Positions 2,971 through 38,067 of a stretch of 64,000 nucleotides of DNA are shown one piece after another. The translations under genes and the position numbers were made by a program. The notes beneath the pieces were generated by a model. The model had not been told where the DNA came from, made no database searches, and worked only from the letters and a program-made list of their open reading frames with translations. This DNA is from Escherichia coli. GTDB lineage: Bacteria > Pseudomonadota > Gammaproteobacteria > Enterobacterales > Enterobacteriaceae. The DNA is taken from NCBI RefSeq assembly GCF_009931435.1, contig NZ_CP043414.1; one strand, given 5' to 3'. Position 1 is the first letter of the stretch, and each line of letters begins with the position of its first letter.

Positions 2971-4224
2971 ATGTCGGGATCCAACACAGCAATCAGCCGT
3001 CGTCGTTTACTGCAAGGCGCGGGTGCCATGTGGCTATTGAGCGTAAGTCAGGTCAGTCTGGCTGCGGTCAGCCAGGTCGTGGCGGTGCGCGTCTGGCCTG
3101 CGTCCAGCTACACCCGTGTGACGGTAGAATCTAATCGTCAGCTGAAATATAAGCAGTTCGCGTTGAGTAACCCTGAACGCGTGGTGGTGGATATCGAAGA
3201 TGTAAACCTGAACTCAGTGCTCAAGGGGATGGCGGCACAAATTCGTGCTGATGACCCGTTCATCAAGTCGGCGCGCGTCGGGCAGTTTGACCCGCAAACC
3301 GTGCGGATGGTTTTTGAGTTAAAGCAAAACGTAAAACCGCAGCTGTTTGCCCTTGCTCCGGTCGCCGGGTTTAAAGAGCGTCTGGTGATGGATCTCTATC
3401 CTGCCAATGCTCAGGACATGCAGGACCCGCTGCTGGCGCTGCTGGAGGATTACAATAAAGGCGATCTCGAAAAGCAGGTGCCGCCTGCGCAGAGTGGCCC
3501 GCAGCCAGGCAAAGCAGGGCGCGATCGTCCGATTGTCATTATGCTTGACCCTGGCCATGGCGGCGAAGACTCCGGTGCGGTGGGGAAATACAAAACGCGT
3601 GAAAAAGACGTGGTATTGCAAATTGCCCGCCGTTTGCGCTCTCTGATTGAGAAAGAGGGCAATATGAAAGTTTACATGACCCGTAATGAAGACATCTTCA
3701 TTCCGTTGCAAGTGCGCGTAGCAAAAGCACAGAAACAGCGTGCTGACTTGTTTGTCTCTATTCATGCCGATGCCTTTACCAGTCGCCAGCCGAGCGGTTC
3801 ATCTGTGTTTGCGCTCTCTACCAAAGGTGCAACCAGTACCGCGGCAAAATATCTGGCGCAAACTCAGAACGCCTCGGACTTGATTGGTGGCGTGAGTAAG
3901 AGCGGCGACCGTTATGTCGACCATACTATGTTCGATATGGTGCAGTCGCTGACCATTGCCGACAGTCTGAAGTTTGGTAAAGCTGTGTTGAATAAGCTCG
4001 GTAAAATCAACAAGCTGCATAAAAATCAGGTTGAACAAGCCGGGTTTGCCGTGCTGAAAGCGCCTGATATACCCTCCATTTTGGTCGAAACGGCGTTTAT
4101 CAGTAACGTTGAGGAAGAACGTAAACTGAAAACGGCAACCTTCCAGCAGGAAGTTGCGGAATCAATCCTCGCAGGAATAAAAGCGTATTTTGCCGATGGG
4201 GCGACGCTGGCGAGAAGGGGATAA
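2971..4224 (+). CDS. amiC: N-acetylmuramoyl-L-alanine amidase AmiC (Tat signal SRRRLLQG)
   Basis: Tat motif, amidase_3 domain, 417 aa from Met at 2971; synteny with argA. Confidence 0.9.
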
Positions 4225-4394
4225 TGTTTTTATTTATTCAATGAATTTATATTTCGTTGAATAGATAATATTTACCTGAATATTAGACGTTGGTTTTGTG
4301 ACTGATGTCGAATATTTGAATGTCGGCTTGAAAAATAAGCCGACCATCTCTTTAATTAAGCACAATTCCGTGTAATGTATATGCATTAGTTAAT

Positions 4395-4470
4395 CATCTT
4401 GTAACTGTTAAATCAGGCAAGGCAATGTTTGAAGTAATTATTACTTCTGACGTGCCTTGCCTTTTTTTTT
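4395..4470 (+). promoter_or_regulatory. RAT-like element overlapping a rho-independent terminator (stem AGGCAAGGCA/TGCCTTGCCT 4415-4462, then T9) in leader of antiterminator-PTS operon
   Basis: Perfect 10-bp inverted repeat followed by 9 T; upstream GTAACTG..CAGGCAA resembles bgl RAT; sits directly 5' of a BglG-family gene. Confidence 0.5.
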
Positions 4471-4481
4471 GGAGCTATGGA

Positions 4482-5306
4482 ATGATCATCGAAAAAGTCA
4501 TGAACAATAATTGTGTACAGGCATCGATGAATGGACAGGAGGTTATCATTTCTGGGCCTGGCGTCGGTTACAACAAAAAATATGGAATGTCGGTCCCTGA
4601 GCATCCGGCTAACCGGATTTTTTATGTCAGAAATGAACAAAAAAATAAACTCTACAAATTGATTGAACATGTGGATATTGAGTATGTTTTTGTTGCCGAA
4701 AAAATAGTGCAATATGCAGAGAACAATCTCGAAAAAAATCTCAATCCATCGCTACTATTGATTCTTGCTGATCACATTTCGAATGCAATATCCCGAGTCG
4801 CTTCAGGCATACAAATTAATAATGTTTTCCTTGATGAAATCAAAGCGTTGTACAAAGCAGAGTATGCGATAAGTCGCGATGCATTAACTATCATTAATGA
4901 GCAATTTAGCGTTCAACTTCCTGATGATGAGATTGGTTTTATAGCATTGCATATTTTAAATAATTATGAAAATTCAGTTGATTATGAATCAGTACGGATT
5001 ATTGAGTTGTCGCAAATAATCACGGGGCTTATTGAAGTTGTTTATAACAGAAAGGTGGACAGAAGTTCATTTAATTATTCCAGGTTCATGATACACCTTA
5101 AATATTTTTCAAGTCGCGTATTATGCAATGAAAAAATAAAACAGAAAGATATTGGTGATCTCTATGAACAGTTTCTTGAGAAAGACATTCTGTTACAGCG
5201 CGCAATTCATGAAATTGAAAGGTATTTGTACGCCACTTTTAAATATGAATTGATTTTGGAAGAAAAACTATATCTCTCTATTCGCACCAAAGTATTAATG
5301 GACTAA
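4482..5306 (+). CDS. BglG/LicT-family transcription antiterminator (CAT RNA-binding domain + 2 PRDs)
   Basis: N-terminal MIIEKVMNNNCVQA.. CAT-like, PRD-like IALHI motif; start moved to ATG 4482 with GGAG RBS because ORF-track start 4425 lies inside the terminator loop. Confidence 0.75.
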   Translation: MIIEKVMNNNCVQASMNGQEVIISGPGVGYNKKYGMSVPEHPANRIFYVRNEQKNKLYKLIEHVDIEYVFVAEKIVQYAENNLEKNLNPSLLLILADHISNAISRVASGIQINNVFLDEIKALYKAEYAISRDALTIINEQFSVQLPDDEIGFIALHILNNYENSVDYESVRIIELSQIITGLIEVVYNRKVDRSSFNYSRFMIHLKYFSSRVLCNEKIKQKDIGDLYEQFLEKDILLQRAIHEIERYLYATFKYELILEEKLYLSIRTKVLMD

Positions 5307-5337
5307 TTATATATAACATTTATATGAGATAACCCGC

Positions 5338-6918
5338 ATGAAACAAAAGAAAGCCTGGAGTTTTTTTCAGAGCCTGGGAAAGGCATTTATGTATCCCATC
5401 GCTCTGCTAAGTGTATGTGGCATGATGTTAGGGCTAGGAAGTGGTTTAGCCAGCGATGATATGGCAAAATTAATTCCACTACTGGCTATTCCCGTAATTA
5501 AAACCATTCTTGATTTTATTGTTAGCCTTGGTTTGTTTGCCTTTGTCAATTTACCTGTATTGTTTGCGATAGCTATACCTCTGGGGTTATTAAAAGAGAA
5601 AGAGGATAAAGCCTATGGCGCTTTTTCTGGCTTAATTGGTTTCATGGCGATGCATCTGGGAACGAACTTTTATCTTAAACAACATGACTTATTGGTCGCT
5701 GCTGATCAAATGTCGACACATGGGCAAACCATTATTCTGGGAATCCAGTCCTACAATACCAGTGTGTTGGGTGGGATTATAGCAGGATTATTAGTCGCCA
5801 GTATGTATAAAAAGATCGTTAACTTACGTATTCCTGAATCATTAGGATTTTATAGTGGCCCACGCCTGGTGCCTATTATTACACTGATTGTGATGAGTGG
5901 ATTTGGTCTGATCATCCCTTTTATCTGGCCGCCATTTTTCAATCTTTTCATGCTCATTGGCCACTGGATTTCAACTTCCGGTCCTGTTGGCTATTTTTTC
6001 TATGCAGTCGCCGAACGCGTGACGATACCTTTTGGTTTAAATCACCTGGTGACGTCAGTTTTCCGCTTTACCCCCATCGGCGGATCGGCAGTGATCGGCG
6101 GCGAAGAGTATTATGGCACCCTGAACATGTTTATGGCGTACGTCAAAGAGAATGCGGTCATTCCGCTGGATTTGGCGGGGAAAATGGAACAGGGCAAACT
6201 GATGATTCAGTATGGTCTGGCTGGTGCCGCGCTGGCGATGTATCGCACTGCTCATGCTCAAAACAGAAAAGCTATCAAAGCATTGCTTATTTCCGGGGTG
6301 CTTACAGTCATTATTGGCGGCGTCAGCGAACCGATTGAGTTTCTGTTCTTATTTGTCAGTCCACTGCTGTTTGTCTTCCATGCCTTTATGAATGGATTCG
6401 CCAACATGGTCTTGCCATATATGGGCGTGAAGATGGGATTTACTGGCGATCTGATTCAATTTATTAGCTTTGGCGTATTGCGTGGCACAAGAACAGGTTG
6501 GCCAATAGCGGTGTGTGTCGAAGTGGCCTATTTCTTTATTTATTACTTTGTGTTCCGTTGGACTATTCTCAAATTTAACCTGATGACGGTAGGCCGTGAA
6601 GAGTCCAGTCCTGTCACGCTGAACGCTCATGAGGATACGGCTATAGCGGATATCCCAACGCTTGATAAATCAGAGCTGCAAGCAGCGGAGCAGATGGTTA
6701 AGGCACTTGGTGGTAAAGAGAATATTAAATCCCTGGATAATTGCGTAACTCGTTTACGTTTAACAATCGCAGATATGGGATTGATTGACGAGGCAGCAAT
6801 AAAAAGAGCTGGCGGAATTGCGGTTGTTAAACTTGATCAAAATACCCTACAAGTCATTATCGGTACTAAAGTCATCGCCTTGCGTCGGGATATGGATAAC
6901 TACATGGGGATATGCTGA
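5338..6918 (+). CDS. PTS EIICB component, glucose/maltose (MalX/PtsG) family; no EIIA domain
   Basis: Multi-TM EIIC region plus C-terminal EIIB with NCVTRLRL phosphorylation-site motif. Confidence 0.85.
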   Translation: MKQKKAWSFFQSLGKAFMYPIALLSVCGMMLGLGSGLASDDMAKLIPLLAIPVIKTILDFIVSLGLFAFVNLPVLFAIAIPLGLLKEKEDKAYGAFSGLIGFMAMHLGTNFYLKQHDLLVAADQMSTHGQTIILGIQSYNTSVLGGIIAGLLVASMYKKIVNLRIPESLGFYSGPRLVPIITLIVMSGFGLIIPFIWPPFFNLFMLIGHWISTSGPVGYFFYAVAERVTIPFGLNHLVTSVFRFTPIGGSAVIGGEEYYGTLNMFMAYVKENAVIPLDLAGKMEQGKLMIQYGLAGAALAMYRTAHAQNRKAIKALLISGVLTVIIGGVSEPIEFLFLFVSPLLFVFHAFMNGFANMVLPYMGVKMGFTGDLIQFISFGVLRGTRTGWPIAVCVEVAYFFIYYFVFRWTILKFNLMTVGREESSPVTLNAHEDTAIADIPTLDKSELQAAEQMVKALGGKENIKSLDNCVTRLRLTIADMGLIDEAAIKRAGGIAVVKLDQNTLQVIIGTKVIALRRDMDNYMGIC

Positions 6919-8093
6919 TGGATGTTTTTAATACTCCTATTTCCCGCAAAGGAACATATTGTACCCAATGGGACTTTTGCGAGGACAGATTTGGTGTAAA
7001 AGATGTATTACCATTCTCTATTTCAGATATGGATCTTCCGATACCGGAAGCTATCATCAGGGCATTAAAAAAACGTCTGGAACACCCGATTTTAGGGTAC
7101 AGCCGTTGGCAGCATGATGACTATCTGAATGCGATAGTCAATTGGTATCATCAACAATATAAAACTGAAATCAAACCAGAATGGATCACCTATAGCCCAA
7201 GCGTGATGTACTCCATTGCTAAAGCAATAGAGTTATTGACATCGCATGGTGATAATATTCTCGTTTTTACACCTGTCTATAATGCATTTTTTGATATAAT
7301 TAAACATAGCGAGAGAAATATTCTGACAGCCTCTTTGATTATAAAAAATGAGGGGGGCTACGCTATCAATTGGCAAGATTTTGATCTTAAGATTCAAAGC
7401 GCAAAGATGGTGTTATTATGTAATCCTCATAACCCGACAGGAACCGTCTGGTCGGAAGAAGATCTGCATAAAATCGCTGCAAGCTGTGCAAGACATAATG
7501 TCTGGTTATGTTCAGATGAAATTCACAGTGATTTTGTTTTTAATCGTAGCTTTACATCTGCGCTTAAAATAAAAAAAGAAAAAGTAGTGGTGTTTAATTC
7601 GATATCGAAGACATTTAATGTTCCTGCGCTAACAGGATCGTATATGATTTCAACTGACGATAATTTTAATCATGAGTTCAGAACGATATCAAGATATCGC
7701 GATTTTGTAAACTCCCCATCCGTACTGAATATAATTGCAACTATTATTGCCTATAACGAATGTGAGGGATGGTTAACGTCATTAAAGGCACATATTGCCT
7801 CTAACATTCAATTCACCCAGCAGTATCTGAACGAAAATACTCCAGAATTGATCGTAAGGCCTGCTGATGGTTGCTATTTTTCGTGGATAGATTGCTCTGC
7901 TATTGGTTATCCCTTTGATGAATTCTACAGTCGATTAATTCATGAAGGCAAAGTGGGCATTATGGCGGGGAATGTCTATGGAACGGAGGGGGAGGGCTAC
8001 CTTCGTCTGAACCTGGCCTGCGGTCGAGAAAAATTATATATGGGGCTTACGCGTCTTGCGAGTGTAATTAAAAATATTAATCAAGGAAAATAA
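6912..8093 (+). CDS. PLP-dependent C-S lyase / aminotransferase, MalY/PatB-like
   Basis: GTYCTQWDF..PFSISDMD..GYSRW and SISKTFN (PLP-Lys) motifs similar to E. coli MalY from memory; alternative start ATG 6918 overlaps PTS stop (TGATG). Confidence 0.8.
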   Translation: MLMDVFNTPISRKGTYCTQWDFCEDRFGVKDVLPFSISDMDLPIPEAIIRALKKRLEHPILGYSRWQHDDYLNAIVNWYHQQYKTEIKPEWITYSPSVMYSIAKAIELLTSHGDNILVFTPVYNAFFDIIKHSERNILTASLIIKNEGGYAINWQDFDLKIQSAKMVLLCNPHNPTGTVWSEEDLHKIAASCARHNVWLCSDEIHSDFVFNRSFTSALKIKKEKVVVFNSISKTFNVPALTGSYMISTDDNFNHEFRTISRYRDFVNSPSVLNIIATIIAYNECEGWLTSLKAHIASNIQFTQQYLNENTPELIVRPADGCYFSWIDCSAIGYPFDEFYSRLIHEGKVGIMAGNVYGTEGEGYLRLNLACGREKLYMGLTRLASVIKNINQGK

Positions 8094-8095
8094 AA

Positions 8096-8692
8096 ATGAA
8101 CAGCACGGATCTTATCCATCTCATTAAACATTTTATGCGTAACGAACATAAAGCAGTTGAAGAAGTTATTGATTCCCCCCTTTCGGAGGTCGCAAATTTA
8201 ATTAAAGTATTACAGTCTTGTCAGGGGAAAGTTGTTTTTATTGGTGTCGGTAAGTCCGGTATTATTGCCCGAAAACTCGCCGCAACATTTGCCAGCACTG
8301 GAACTCCCTCGTTTTTTGTTCACGGTACTGAAGCCGTACACGGCGATCTTGGGATGGTGGCGAAAGATGATGTTGTTATTCTTATTTCAAACAGTGGTGA
8401 GACGACAGAAATCCTGGCAACACTACCTAGTCTGAAAAAAATGGGTAATTATTTGATCTCCTTTACCCGCAGTCATCGCTCATCGCTTGCGATAAGTTGT
8501 GATTTATCCGTTGAAATTCCCGTAAAAAGTGAGGCGGATAATTTAGGTTTAGCGCCGTCATGCTCATCAACAGTCGTTCTGGTTGTTGGTGATGCGGTGG
8601 CGCTTGCGCTCTCCGAATTGAAAAAGTTTACTCGTGCTGATTTCGGCTTATATCATCCAGGAGGTGCGCTCGGTATTAAAGCAAACTCATAA
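8096..8692 (+). CDS. SIS-domain sugar-phosphate isomerase, KdsD/GutQ-like arabinose-5-phosphate isomerase lacking CBS domains
   Basis: GVGKSGIIARKLAATFASTGTPSFFVHGTEAVHGDLGM..HPGGALG closely resembles KdsD SIS domain; protein ends right after SIS domain (198 aa). Confidence 0.8.
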   Translation: MNSTDLIHLIKHFMRNEHKAVEEVIDSPLSEVANLIKVLQSCQGKVVFIGVGKSGIIARKLAATFASTGTPSFFVHGTEAVHGDLGMVAKDDVVILISNSGETTEILATLPSLKKMGNYLISFTRSHRSSLAISCDLSVEIPVKSEADNLGLAPSCSSTVVLVVGDAVALALSELKKFTRADFGLYHPGGALGIKANS

Positions 8693-8753
8693 TTTTAGAA
8701 TATAAAACAGTAACCGGTCACGCCATCTTTTGGGGTGGCGTTCATTGATGTGA

Positions 8754-9710
8754 GTGTCAGCTATGAAAAACGTTCTGGTCACCGTTCCCAGCTTTTCAGC
8801 GCGTTGTGTTTCTGCCAGCAAGCTGCTAAGAGAAAATCATTTTAACCTTATTATCAAGAATAATGTGGAGCATCTGGTTAAATCAGAATCCACAGTATTA
8901 CGAGAATCTATTTGCGCAGTCATTGCCGGAAAAGATTGTTATCAAGCGGATACGTTATCGCGACTACCAGGAGTGAAAATAATATCGAGATTCGGGACAG
9001 GGATTGATAATATTGATCTTCATACGGCTCGACAATCAGGTATTGTGGTCAATAATGCTGTTGGGATTAATTCAAATGCAGTCGCGGAATTTATCATTGG
9101 TCTTATTTTTGCGAGCATGAGAAATATCCCCGGTAGCTATCATGCGATGCAAAATGGTTATTGGGGCGAGTCGCATGGCTGCGAGTTACAAGGTAAACGT
9201 ATTGGCCTGCTTGGCTACGGCAATATTGGCAAAACACTGGCGAAAAGGTTATCTGGTTTTGATGTTGAGCTTTTAGCTTTTGACAAACAACCCGATTTCC
9301 AGGCCGCAGGCAAAGATGGAGTTCAGTTCGTATCAATTGAAGATATCTTTATGCAGTCTCATGTCATCATCGTTCTTTTGCCATTTTCTCCGGAGCTGGA
9401 GAACTTCATTAGTCATAAATATTTGTCGATGATGCGCAATGGTGCTCTTATCATCAACGCCGCAAGGGGAAAGTTGCTGGATGAGGGTGCTTTACTTCAG
9501 GTAATTGAAGAACGAAATGTTTTTGCAGCGCTGGATGTGTTTAGCTCTGAACCGCTAGCGCAATTTAGCCCATTGCTACATGCCAGGAATATCATTACAA
9601 CGCCGCATATTGCGGCCGCCACCGTTGAGTCATACCAGCAAACCGGGATATACGTTGCCAGGTCGATAATAGATTTCTTTGCAGGAAGGGAGATAAAAAA
9701 CGTGCTGTGA
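8754..9710 (+). CDS. D-isomer-specific 2-hydroxyacid dehydrogenase family protein (NAD-binding)
   Basis: GLLGYGNIGKTLAKRL Rossmann motif and overall family layout. Confidence 0.8.
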   Translation: MSAMKNVLVTVPSFSARCVSASKLLRENHFNLIIKNNVEHLVKSESTVLRESICAVIAGKDCYQADTLSRLPGVKIISRFGTGIDNIDLHTARQSGIVVNNAVGINSNAVAEFIIGLIFASMRNIPGSYHAMQNGYWGESHGCELQGKRIGLLGYGNIGKTLAKRLSGFDVELLAFDKQPDFQAAGKDGVQFVSIEDIFMQSHVIIVLLPFSPELENFISHKYLSMMRNGALIINAARGKLLDEGALLQVIEERNVFAALDVFSSEPLAQFSPLLHARNIITTPHIAAATVESYQQTGIYVARSIIDFFAGREIKNVL

Positions 9711-9736
9711 GTTCAGCTAAGGAAGATTTCAGGTAC

Positions 9737-9771
9737 AAAAAAACCGCAATTTGTGAAACACATTGCGGTTT
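9737..9771 (-). terminator. Rho-independent terminator of tRNA-fMet operon (possibly bidirectional)
   Basis: AACCGCAAT/ATTGCGGTT stem, followed by T-run on minus strand, directly 3' of last tRNA. Confidence 0.5.
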
Positions 9772-9788
9772 ATCAGCATCATAAGTGT

Positions 9789-9865
<77 letters not shown>

Positions 9866-9898
9866 TCACCGTACTGCTTTACTTCATCAAATTTTGAT

Positions 9899-9975
<77 letters not shown>

Positions 9976-10008
9976 TCACCGTACTGCTTTACTTCATCAA
10001 ATTTTAAT

Positions 10009-10085
<77 letters not shown>

Positions 10086-10293
10086 TCCGTGGATGCGCAC
10101 TATACTCCGCTCGCGTTTTCATGCAACCTTTTTTTTACCCAGATCACGGATTTGGTATGATTTTGAGCAAAAACAAATCACTAAAGCCTGTTTTTTGTGC
10201 AAAATTTGCGTCAGGGAGAGGCTGCTCATTTCATTAAACGCAGCGGTTTGTTATCTTCATTGCGCCTTATTTTTTAAACTGAAGAAGAGAACA

Positions 10294-11391
10294 ATGAAAG
10301 GACGTTGGGTAAAGTACCTTCTTATGGGCACGGTTGTGGCAATGCTTGCCGCCTGCTCTTCCAAACCAACCGATCGCGGACAGCAATATAAAGACGGGAA
10401 ATTTACCCAGCCTTTCTCTCTGGTAAACCAGCCAGATGCCGTTGGCGCGCCAATTAACGCCGGTGATTTTGCCGAGCAAATTAACCATATCCGTACTTCG
10501 TCACCGCGTCTGTATGGCAACCAGAGTAATGTTTATAATGCGGTGCAGGAGTGGCTACGCGCAGGCGGTGATACCCGCAATATGCGTCAGTTCGGCATTG
10601 ACGCCTGGCAGATGGAAGGTGCCGACAACTATGGCAACGTGCAGTTTACGGGCTATTACACGCCTGTCATTCAGGCGCGCCATACCCGTCAGGGCGAGTT
10701 CCAGTATCCTATTTACCGTATGCCGCCAAAACGTGGTCGTCTGCCGTCTCGTGCGGAGATCTACGCGGGAGCATTGAGCGATAAATACATCCTCGCTTAC
10801 AGCAACTCTCTGATGGATAACTTCATTATGGATGTGCAGGGTAGCGGGTATATCGATTTTGGTGATGGCAGTCCGCTTAACTTCTTCAGCTATGCCGGAA
10901 AGAATGGTCATGCCTATCGCAGTATTGGTAAGGTGCTGATTGACCGTGGCGAAGTGAAAAAAGAAGATATGTCGATGCAGGCGATTCGTCACTGGGGTGA
11001 AACACACAGTGAAGCCGAGGTTCGCGAGCTGCTGGAACAGAACCCGTCTTTCGTCTTCTTTAAACCGCAATCTTTTGCTCCGGTGAAAGGGGCAAGTGCG
11101 GTGCCGCTGGTTGGTCGCGCTTCAGTTGCGTCCGATCGTTCCATTATCCCGCCTGGTACAACCTTACTGGCAGAAGTGCCGCTGCTGGATAATAACGGCA
11201 AATTTAACGGTCAGTACGAACTGCGGCTGATGGTGGCGCTGGATGTCGGTGGTGCAATCAAAGGCCAACACTTCGATATTTATCAAGGTATCGGGCCGGA
11301 AGCCGGACACCGCGCAGGTTGGTACAACCACTATGGACGTGTTTGGGTGCTGAAAACCGCCCCGGGCGCAGGTAACGTCTTTAGCGGCTGA
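10294..11391 (+). CDS. mltA: Membrane-bound lytic murein transglycosylase A (lipoprotein)
   Basis: MKGRWVKYLLMGTVVAMLAACSS lipobox; 365 aa; ORF-track N-terminal extension overlaps tRNA genes and is rejected. Confidence 0.9.
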   Translation: MKGRWVKYLLMGTVVAMLAACSSKPTDRGQQYKDGKFTQPFSLVNQPDAVGAPINAGDFAEQINHIRTSSPRLYGNQSNVYNAVQEWLRAGGDTRNMRQFGIDAWQMEGADNYGNVQFTGYYTPVIQARHTRQGEFQYPIYRMPPKRGRLPSRAEIYAGALSDKYILAYSNSLMDNFIMDVQGSGYIDFGDGSPLNFFSYAGKNGHAYRSIGKVLIDRGEVKKEDMSMQAIRHWGETHSEAEVRELLEQNPSFVFFKPQSFAPVKGASAVPLVGRASVASDRSIIPPGTTLLAEVPLLDNNGKFNGQYELRLMVALDVGGAIKGQHFDIYQGIGPEAGHRAGWYNHYGRVWVLKTAPGAGNVFSG

Positions 11392-37708: not shown

Positions 37709-38067
37709 GAGTCAGACAACGAAGTGAACATCAGGATGATGACACTTCTGAAGGACACACCAGGAGGGTGTTTCAGGGAAAGGCTTCTGGATGAAGCGAA
37801 GAGGATGACGCAGGACGCGTTAAAGGACACCTCCAGGATGGAGAATGAGAACCGGTCAGGATGATTCGGTGGGTCAGGAAGGCCAAGGACACTTCAGGAT
37901 GAAGTATCATATCGGGGTGGTGTGAGCAGGAAGCAATAGTTCAGGATGAACGATTGGCCGCAAGGCCAGAGGAAAAGTTGTCAAGGATGAGCAGGGAGCA
38001 ACAAAAGTAGCTGGAATGCTGCGAAACGAACCGGGAGCACTGTGAATACAGTGCTCCCTTTTTTTAT
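37709..38067 (+). ncRNA. csrB: CsrB, CsrA-sequestering sRNA (~360 nt, many CAGGA(U/A)G repeats, terminal hairpin + U-run)
   Basis: Starts GAGTCAGACAACGAAGTGAACATCAGGATGATG; dense repeated AGGA/GGA motifs throughout; terminator GGGAGCACTGTGAATACAGTGCTCCC + T8. Confidence 0.9.

Follow-up and report, generated by a model that had tools for sequence, protein, structure and literature searches.

A 64,000-nucleotide (nt) stretch of Escherichia coli DNA (RefSeq assembly GCF_009931435.1, contig NZ_CP043414.1), here called the window, carries downstream of amiC a five-gene islet that opens with a BglG-family antiterminator gene and a phosphotransferase system (PTS) permease gene. The leader of this islet operon is very probably a BglG/SacY-type attenuator, in which a ribonucleic antiterminator (RAT) overlapping an intrinsic terminator would confer sugar-controlled antitermination with positive autoregulation from a single site. 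The proposed function, substrate-dependent antitermination and autoregulation, is read from what is known of the family; the RAT-terminator mechanism is already textbook, and the present leader is a further, ordinary member of the BglG/SacY RAT-terminator class. Its feature of note is a RAT missing the lower loop and stem, paired with a CAT domain that carries Pro26, Asn31, and Tyr30. The elements of the leader and the gene behind it are as follows.

4397..4422, + strand: RAT hairpin (fold, unique pattern, covariance-model match, and conservation).
4415..4462, + strand: terminator hairpin (outer stem 4415-4424/4453-4462, middle stem 4426-4429/4449-4452, top stem 4431-4437/4441-4447).
4462..4470, + strand: U-tract (T9) of the intrinsic terminator (sequence reading and inverted-repeat search; T8-T9 in every orthologous leader).
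4471..4484, + strand: Shine-Dalgarno GGAG (4471-4474) and start ATG (4482-4484), with 7-nt spacing; the RefSeq start, invariant in all orthologues.
4482..5306, + strand: BglG/SacY-family antiterminator of 274 amino acids, with a CAT RNA-binding domain, PRD1, and PRD2 (Pfam and structure matches).

The terminator is built from two nested inverted repeats, both found by reading and by an inverted-repeat search. An earlier note, made from the sequence of the window, had described a perfect 10-bp stem here, and the outer arms, AGGCAAGGCA (4415-4424) and TGCCTTGCCT (4453-4462), are indeed complementary at 10 of 10 positions, with 28 nt between them. The inner arms, GAAGTAAT (4431-4438) and ATTACTTC (4440-4447), are complementary at 8 of 8; the note had called them a perfect palindrome nested in the loop, which is right as to their complementarity and wrong as to their abutting, the two being separated by T4439, so that in RNA they form a stem of 7 bp capped by a 3-nt loop. 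What separates the outer arms, the 28-nt “loop”, is itself structured, and the whole hairpin is a three-tier stem of 21 pairs (10 + 4 + 7). On the + strand the order is TCATCTTGTAACTGTTAAATC-AGGCAAGGCA-A-TGTT-T-GAAGTAAT-T-ATTACTTC-T-GACG-TGCCTTGCCT, followed by the T-run to 4470, GGAG, CTATGGA, and the ATG at 4482. The T-run comprises nine T (4462-4470), the first of which doubles as the last base of the stem, and it stands directly before the ribosome-binding site, as the note had stated; an A-tract at 4410-4412, 5′ of the stem, is complementary to it.

RNA folding gives the terminator hairpin alone -28.1 kcal/mol. Folding of the 4390-4475 region had been suggested as a check of the proposed structure; the RNA of 4385-4485 folds to -32.4 kcal/mol, with a z score of -5.24 and none of 200 shuffles as good. 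Perfect 10-bp inverted repeats that have a T-run behind them and a loop no longer than 40 nt are found at only two places in the window, where 0.01 are expected per Markov-simulated window. The second, at 38033-38058 on the + strand (GGGAGCACTG...), is presumably an ordinary intrinsic terminator.

The RAT runs into the 5′ arm of this hairpin. Its invariant core, CTTGTAACTGTTAAATCAGGCAAG (4398-4421), lies within the canonical 29-nt frame ATCTTGTAACTGTTAAATCAGGCAAGGCA (4396-4424) and matches the core of the E. coli bgl RAT, TTGTTACTG-N6-CAGGCAA, with equal spacing. Set against the K-12 bgl leaders t1 (GGATTGTTACTGCATTCGCAGGCAAAACC) and t2 (GGATTGTTACCGCACTAAGCGGGCAAAACC), the window sequence is in register throughout TTGT-A-ACTG, the six apical bases, and CAGGCAA; 15 of the 16 core bases are those of t1, and the apical spacing is 6 nt in both. 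The pattern TTGTNACTG-N3-9-CAGGCAA has a single match in the 64 kb and none in 100 shuffles. Five canonical RATs, two of bgl and three of a bgl-type operon from Clostridium tertium that appeared among distant relatives, also went into a covariance model, whose best match on either strand of the window is 4399-4420, at 15.6 bits and an E value of about 0.008. This match is local and covers model positions 4-26 only, these being the only RAT positions that are canonical here. The resemblance of the upstream half to the bgl RAT, remarked on in the earlier note, is borne out both by the core match to K-12 t1 and by the rank of this match. Folded alone, the RAT hairpin has an energy of -6.3 kcal/mol, with the upper internal loop present.

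Eight nucleotides (4415-4422) are shared by the 3′ half of the RAT (4414-4422) and the 5′ arm of the terminator (4415-4424), and the two folds are therefore mutually exclusive. With the RAT enforced, the best structure reaches -16.0 kcal/mol, versus -28.1 to -29.6 kcal/mol for the terminator. When folding is computed for a transcript of increasing length, the RAT has the lowest energy up to about position 4452 and gives way as 4453-4462 emerges. On these calculations the arrangement is one in which a protein clamp on the RAT would decide the outcome.

We compared orthologous loci from other E. coli lineages, E. whittamii, two Citrobacter species, Atlantibacter hermannii, and several metagenome contigs, with a leader alignment of 12 sequences from three genera. 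The RAT frame is identical to that of the window at 27 to 29 of its 29 positions in E. coli, E. whittamii, the two Citrobacter species, and A. hermannii, lineages in which the identity of the antiterminator coding sequence is 74-76% as a whole and 52-56% at third codon positions. In the 12 leaders the RAT core CTTGTnACTGTTAAATCAGGCAAG is constant apart from 4403, which is A, and C in Atlantibacter. This base corresponds to RAT position 8, which in the complex of LicT with its RAT is the base flipped out (PMC3105407). Judged from the alignment, such invariance is what would be expected of a site that is bound sequence-specifically.

The terminator has been conserved in a different manner, as a structure. 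In the alignment 95.2% of its cells are paired, and none of 500 shuffles reaches its covariation score. Three pairs are compensatory, namely 4422/4455 (G-C to A-U in five sequences), 4431/4447 (G-C to A-U), and 4426/4452, and the G-U wobbles make sense for + strand RNA only. Every orthologue has a hairpin of -25 to -30 kcal/mol followed by T8-9, and in Atlantibacter the stem is an uninterrupted 21 bp. The leader terminator proposed in the note is in this way supported across three genera.

Each orthologous locus has the RAT motif exactly once, in an unchanging position. No second RAT was found in the 64-kb window by pattern or covariance model, nor elsewhere in the orthologous loci, and a scan of public metagenomes with the 24-nt RAT core returned seven contigs, all seven with the same leader before the same gene. 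From these searches the antiterminator appears to have a single target. The order of the five genes is likewise kept in all orthologous loci, in differing surroundings. In Escherichia and Atlantibacter the operon lies between amiC and metV; in Citrobacter-like contigs (L009, L010, L016, and L017) its neighbors are an LTXXQ-domain gene on one side and the RNase T gene on the other, and in a third context (L011) it stands beside IS1 transposase and integrase genes. It has therefore moved horizontally.

The protein encoded behind the leader has the domains that such a mechanism calls for. Pfam identifies CAT_RBD (1.4e-14) and PRD (3e-26), and the matches to solved structures include the LicT PRDs (1e-31) and CAT domain (7e-4), a BglG-family CAT-PRD1 structure, and GlcT; with a PTS EIICB gene 31 nt further on, this agrees with the BglG-family gene and PTS operon that had been noted downstream. 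The protein is 30% identical to K-12 BglG. By alignment, three regulatory histidines are kept (H98, H157, and H205, for LicT H100, H159, and H207), and the fourth site (LicT H269) is Arg268 in all orthologues and Asn in BglG. In LicT the CAT residues that contact RNA are 5-10, Gly26, Arg27, Phe31, and Gln32 (PMC3105407); K5, N8-N10, G25, and an aromatic residue at 30 (Tyr30 for LicT Phe31) are retained. The CAT specificity positions (LicT Arg27 and Gln32) are Pro26 and Asn31 in all orthologues, the proline as in SacT and the asparagine as in SacY. None of the NCBIfam equivalog cut-offs is reached (LicT 228 versus 300, GlcT 178.6 versus 320, BglG 105 versus 322), and the closest relatives form a narrow set at 77-93% identity, followed at about 35% by proteins from Clostridia and Thermoanaerobacterium. 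The antiterminator is an unnamed branch of the BglG/SacY family.

From the behavior of this family we infer how protein binding, phosphorylation, and inducer would control the leader. Transcription would begin a few bases 5′ of 4396, probably near 4385, or read through from amiC, and in the latter case it would meet the same switch. The nascent RNA would first form the weak RAT hairpin (4397-4422). Upon emergence of the 3′ arm (4453-4462) the more stable terminator (4415-4462) would displace the RAT, and polymerase would be released in the U-tract (4462-4470), one base before the Shine-Dalgarno sequence, leaving the operon off, with a leader RNA some 85 nt long as the product. In the uninduced state, phosphorylated EIIB of the MalX-like permease would phosphorylate PRD1 (His98/His157), and the antiterminator would stay monomeric. 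When inducer is transported, phosphate would drain to the sugar and EIIB would stop phosphorylating PRD1; the unphosphorylated antiterminator would then dimerize, and its CAT domains would clamp the RAT, withholding 8 of the 10 nt of the terminator 5′ arm and permitting read-through into the operon. As the first gene behind its own attenuator, the antiterminator gene would be subject to positive feedback. Because it is first, and because no second terminator lies in the 31-nt gap before the PTS gene, positive autoregulation would be exerted from one site.

Several observations weigh against this reading. We found no expression, transcription-start, termination, or binding data for the locus in the searchable literature, and a consensus promoter scan of the + strand from amiC to the RAT gave no recognizable sigma-70 promoter. 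The RAT helix shows no covariation, its sequence never varying, and its fold is therefore argued from conservation and analogy only. Scanned with Rfam, neither 3500-10500 nor the leader by itself yielded a meaningful leader match; the bglG-cis-reg family RF03530 scores 13.4 bits over 4379-4486 (E value 5.4), below the gathering score of 80. Neither the bottom stem G1G2/C28C29 of a canonical RAT nor its lower asymmetric internal loop (position 3 versus 26-27) is present. The frame in the window instead has the ends A1 U2 C3 ... G26 G27 C28 A29, and in place of the lower loop the predicted helix extends as a Watson-Crick C3-G26 pair (C4398-G4421) and a U2-G27 pair (U4397-G4422), the latter not being kept, as U2 is A in L011. 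One CAT monomer of LicT binds the lower RAT loop, and with that loop absent the binding mode on the present RAT may differ or be weaker.

The authentic E. coli bgl t1 and t2 leaders, run as controls, score 22.4 and 24.3 bits on RF03530, likewise below 80, and failing this model is therefore uninformative for enterobacterial leaders. In Bacillus subtilis the lower part of the RAT governs the matching of antiterminators to their RATs (PMC1635312); a specificity variant or distinct subtype is therefore the best reading of the difference, which does not count as evidence against the mechanism and may keep the element insulated from BglG. We consider it rather doubtful that the leaders of Escherichia, Citrobacter, and Atlantibacter make up a distinct “one-loop” RAT subtype confined to these genera, with a canonical upper loop, an invariant apical loop, and a Watson-Crick lower stem, that is paired with the Pro26/Asn31/Tyr30 CAT domain and orthogonal to BglG within one cell. 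Were this so, the CAT dimer would recognize an asymmetric target in a manner unseen in the LicT-RAT complex. A secondary possibility, likewise doubtful, is that the terminated leader of about 85 nt, which would be abundant and would end in a stem with a U-tail, has a role in trans as well. The Clostridia relatives at about 35% identity were set aside for defining such a subtype, as they head ordinary beta-glucoside operons (EIIBCA and GH1) with canonical RATs or a different, GGAUAGUGAUUG-type RAT.

Other explanations of the same features were considered. Since amiC, which ends at 4224, is oriented the same way, the hairpin could be a plain amiC terminator or an insulator at the islet border, with a fortuitous likeness to a RAT and no antitermination. 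The terminator of amiC in K-12 lies in the 73-bp amiC-metV spacer that the islet replaces, and the hairpin is the first strong terminator downstream of amiC, the sole other candidate, at 4322-4344, having a poor T-run. Yet in loci with a neighbor other than amiC, in Citrobacter (L009, L016, and L017) and beside IS1 and integrase genes (L011), the operon still has its RAT and hairpin, conservation of the RAT is far above neutral, and the chance expectation of the RAT pattern is about zero. We regard the explanation as improbable, and the hairpin may also stop amiC read-through, the two roles being compatible. Just as improbable, in our estimate, is a RAT served mainly by chromosomal BglG or another paralogue, which would tie the islet to beta-glucoside signaling. 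The upper two-thirds of the RAT are nearly identical to the bgl RATs and cross-talk within the BglG family is documented in B. subtilis (PMC1635312, PMC3105407), but the lower loop and stem, the specificity region in B. subtilis (PMC1635312), differ completely from those of bgl, the cognate protein has Pro26 and Asn31 at both known specificity positions, bgl is normally silent in E. coli (PMC2646131), and RAT and gene are inherited together across the genera and contexts compared. This divergence of the lower RAT and the strict co-inheritance make service by BglG appear unlikely.

The nested palindrome GAAGTAAT-T-ATTACTTC invites a further explanation, that of a DNA operator at which a dimeric repressor blocks transcription downstream of the promoter, as it forms a perfect 17-bp palindrome in E. 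coli and lies 3′ of the likely start site. In Atlantibacter, however, the DNA palindrome decays to AAAGTCTC-T-ATTGCTTT while an A-U compensatory change, together with a U-G wobble that is workable on + strand RNA only, preserves the RNA pairing, and the apical bases of the palindrome vary freely among the leaders (AAT, AGT, GAT, CTC, and CGT). An operator is in our view very improbable. We give least credence, indeed next to none, to ribosome-mediated attenuation, in which translation from the ATG at 4425 through the hairpin would control termination, or to a protein 19 residues longer. That ATG opens the longest frame in the program-made list of open reading frames, but Citrobacter MGH106, Atlantibacter, and L009 have ACG in its place and L011 has AGG, and it has no preceding Shine-Dalgarno sequence, whereas the GGAG placed 7 nt before ATG 4482, the RefSeq start, is invariant. 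The protein-dependent attenuator remains the explanation that we prefer.

The ATG at 4425 is in frame with that at 4482 and sits just inside the hairpin. The earlier note had placed it in the hairpin loop. It is not the gene start, which RefSeq puts at 4482; as a start codon or the beginning of a leader peptide it was rejected, being unconserved and without a Shine-Dalgarno sequence. A mini-open reading frame of two codons, ATG GAA TGA (4477-4485; ATG AAA TGA in other genera), overlaps the real start as A-ATG-A. With GGAG only 2 nt away, it is probably not translated.

Conservation upstream of the RAT points, with low confidence, to a promoter.

4373..4385, + strand: putative promoter, with a -10 element TAATGT (4373-4378) and a start near A4385 (conservation only).

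GTGTAnnGT and CAT (4384-4386) are invariant in the 12 leaders of three genera, and the neighboring bases vary; a -10 element of the form TAnnGT at 4373-4378 and transcription from near A4385 are tentatively proposed from this pattern. Some 185 nt 5′ of the start codon, TGTGA (4297-4301) is present in seven of nine leaders checked, despite differing upstream neighbors, the exceptions being Citrobacter FP75 with TGTGG and MGH106 with TGTGAGG, shifted by two. In the window 4297-4312 reads TGTGA-N6-TCGAA. TGTGA may represent half of a CRP site, some 80 nt before the putative start, and would then add catabolite control. The spacer between amiC and the antiterminator gene has two more inverted repeats, an AT-rich one with 16-nt arms at 4230-4268 and another at 4322-4344 (GTCGGCTT/AAGCCGAC). 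The 4322-4344 hairpin, with its poor T-run, is kept in Escherichia lineages with altered stem bases and is not found in the other genera. Within the antiterminator coding sequence a terminator-like hairpin with T5 at 4603-4618 was tried as a second attenuator and rejected as a chance feature, since its stem has not survived in other E. coli lineages or in any of the other genera.

The remaining four genes of the operon are the following.

5338..6918, + strand: PTS EIICB, MalX-like, without an EIIA domain (Pfam PTS_EIIC and PTS_EIIB).
6918-8093, + strand: PatB/MalY-family C-S lyase (domain assignment).
8096-8692, + strand: SIS-domain KpsF/GutQ-like isomerase (domain assignment).
8754-9710, + strand: open reading frame of a 2-hydroxyacid/phosphoglycerate-type dehydrogenase, with the start perhaps at 8763 (domain assignment).

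The EIICB scores 536.6 bits on the NCBIfam model PTS-IIBC-malX, below the cut-off of 632, and is the presumed sensor and transporter of the system; without an EIIA of its own it presumably uses EIIA-Glc (Crr), as MalX does. The dehydrogenase gene, intact in the window, is annotated as frameshifted in E. coli R32_14_1F (L001, 6064-7010) and is split or uncalled in two Atlantibacter contigs (L007; L008, 7237-8184), and it may be dispensable.

The window is laid out as argA (- strand), amiC (+ strand, ending at 4224), the five-gene islet, the metV/W/Z initiator tRNA-Met genes (- strand, 9792-10085), and mltA. The islet (4225-9790) replaces the 73-bp amiC-metV spacer of K-12, which has its own terminator; of 5426 complete E. 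coli genomes, 1689 (about 31%) carry the islet. It corresponds to CFT073 c3405-c3410, described as “PTS system, maltose/glucose specific” within PAI-CFT073-metV (PMC2831201). In a 2010 comparison of 20 Escherichia and Shigella genomes the operon was found in all four uropathogenic E. coli (UPEC), E2348, and SMS-3-5, and in no other strain (PMC2831201). In the searchable literature we found no study of the regulation or substrate of c3405-c3410; a RAT search by Gordon et al. in 2015 may include the site. That search reportedly covered a UPEC genome.

E. coli HS-02 (L006, NZ_CP172818.1) was dropped as an islet-less comparison strain for its C-depleted sequence without detectable tRNAs, and K-12 was used for the empty site. 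Downstream of amiC, HS-02 has a degenerate, C-poor, T-rich stretch at 1500-1960 that resembles a corrupted islet leader and K-12 spacer, is probably an assembly or base-calling artefact, and gave no tRNA genes with ARAGORN. Elsewhere in the window, periodic weak matches to the RAT model brought to light an array of clustered regularly interspaced short palindromic repeats (CRISPR) at 60396-61218, confirmed by a repeat search, with 14 regular 29-nt repeats (GAGTTCCCCGCGCCAGCGGGGATAAACCG) at a 61-nt period and degenerate copies at 61672-61815. The 29-nt repeat resembles that of the E. coli type I-E system.

The attenuator provides a handle on a widespread, uncharacterized accessory operon of E. 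coli and on its inducing sugar. So clear an attenuator predicts that the operon would become constitutive on loss of the EIICB gene or of the terminator. Furthermore, with its variant lower half the RAT offers a natural case for studying the insulation of paralogous CAT-RAT pairs from one another in a Gram-negative cell in which bgl is present as well.

Among known systems the E. coli bglGFB leader is comparable in many respects. Both have the RAT core TTGT(T/A)ACTG-N6-CAGGCAA with equal spacing, a RAT overlapping the 5′ arm of a long, tiered intrinsic terminator, an autoregulatory attenuator before the antiterminator gene, and a CAT-PRD1-PRD2 protein without the fourth regulatory histidine (Asn in BglG, Arg268 here). 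In contrast, bgl has a second attenuator, t2, before bglF and the islet leader has only one; the islet RAT lacks the bottom stem G1G2/C28C29 and the lower internal loop; the bgl sensor is a beta-glucoside EIIBCA and that of the islet a MalX-like, glucose-family EIICB without EIIA; and the islet protein is only 30% identical to BglG, in an operon without a glycosidase. The curated family of such bglG/licT operon leaders, Rfam RF03530 bglG-cis-reg, matches the present leader weakly and does not cover enterobacterial members.

The GlcT/ptsG system of B. subtilis resembles the islet in that its antiterminator controls a glucose-family EIICB-type permease and the lower part of its RAT departs from the canonical lower loop. 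The glcT gene is not known to be placed behind its own RAT in the manner of the islet. The islet protein differs in scoring 178.6 against the GlcT cut-off of 320, below its own LicT score. In GlcT/ptsG the lower loop's structure sets specificity and prevents cross-talk, the loop forming a second “triple base pair” that is symmetric to the upper (PMC1635312).

The third comparison is with LicT, SacT, and SacY of B. subtilis and their RATs (licS/bglPH, sacPA, and sacB; LicT CAT-RAT structure, PDB 1L1C). The islet protein is at most about 35% identical to these and has Tyr30 for the strictly conserved Phe31, and its RAT differs from the LicT type in having A (C in Atlantibacter) for U at position 8 and in missing the lower loop. 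On the other hand, these proteins are its best sequence matches of solved structure, the RNA-contact residues are kept, and the CAT domain of the islet protein combines the Pro26 of SacT with the Asn31 of SacY (PMC3105407).

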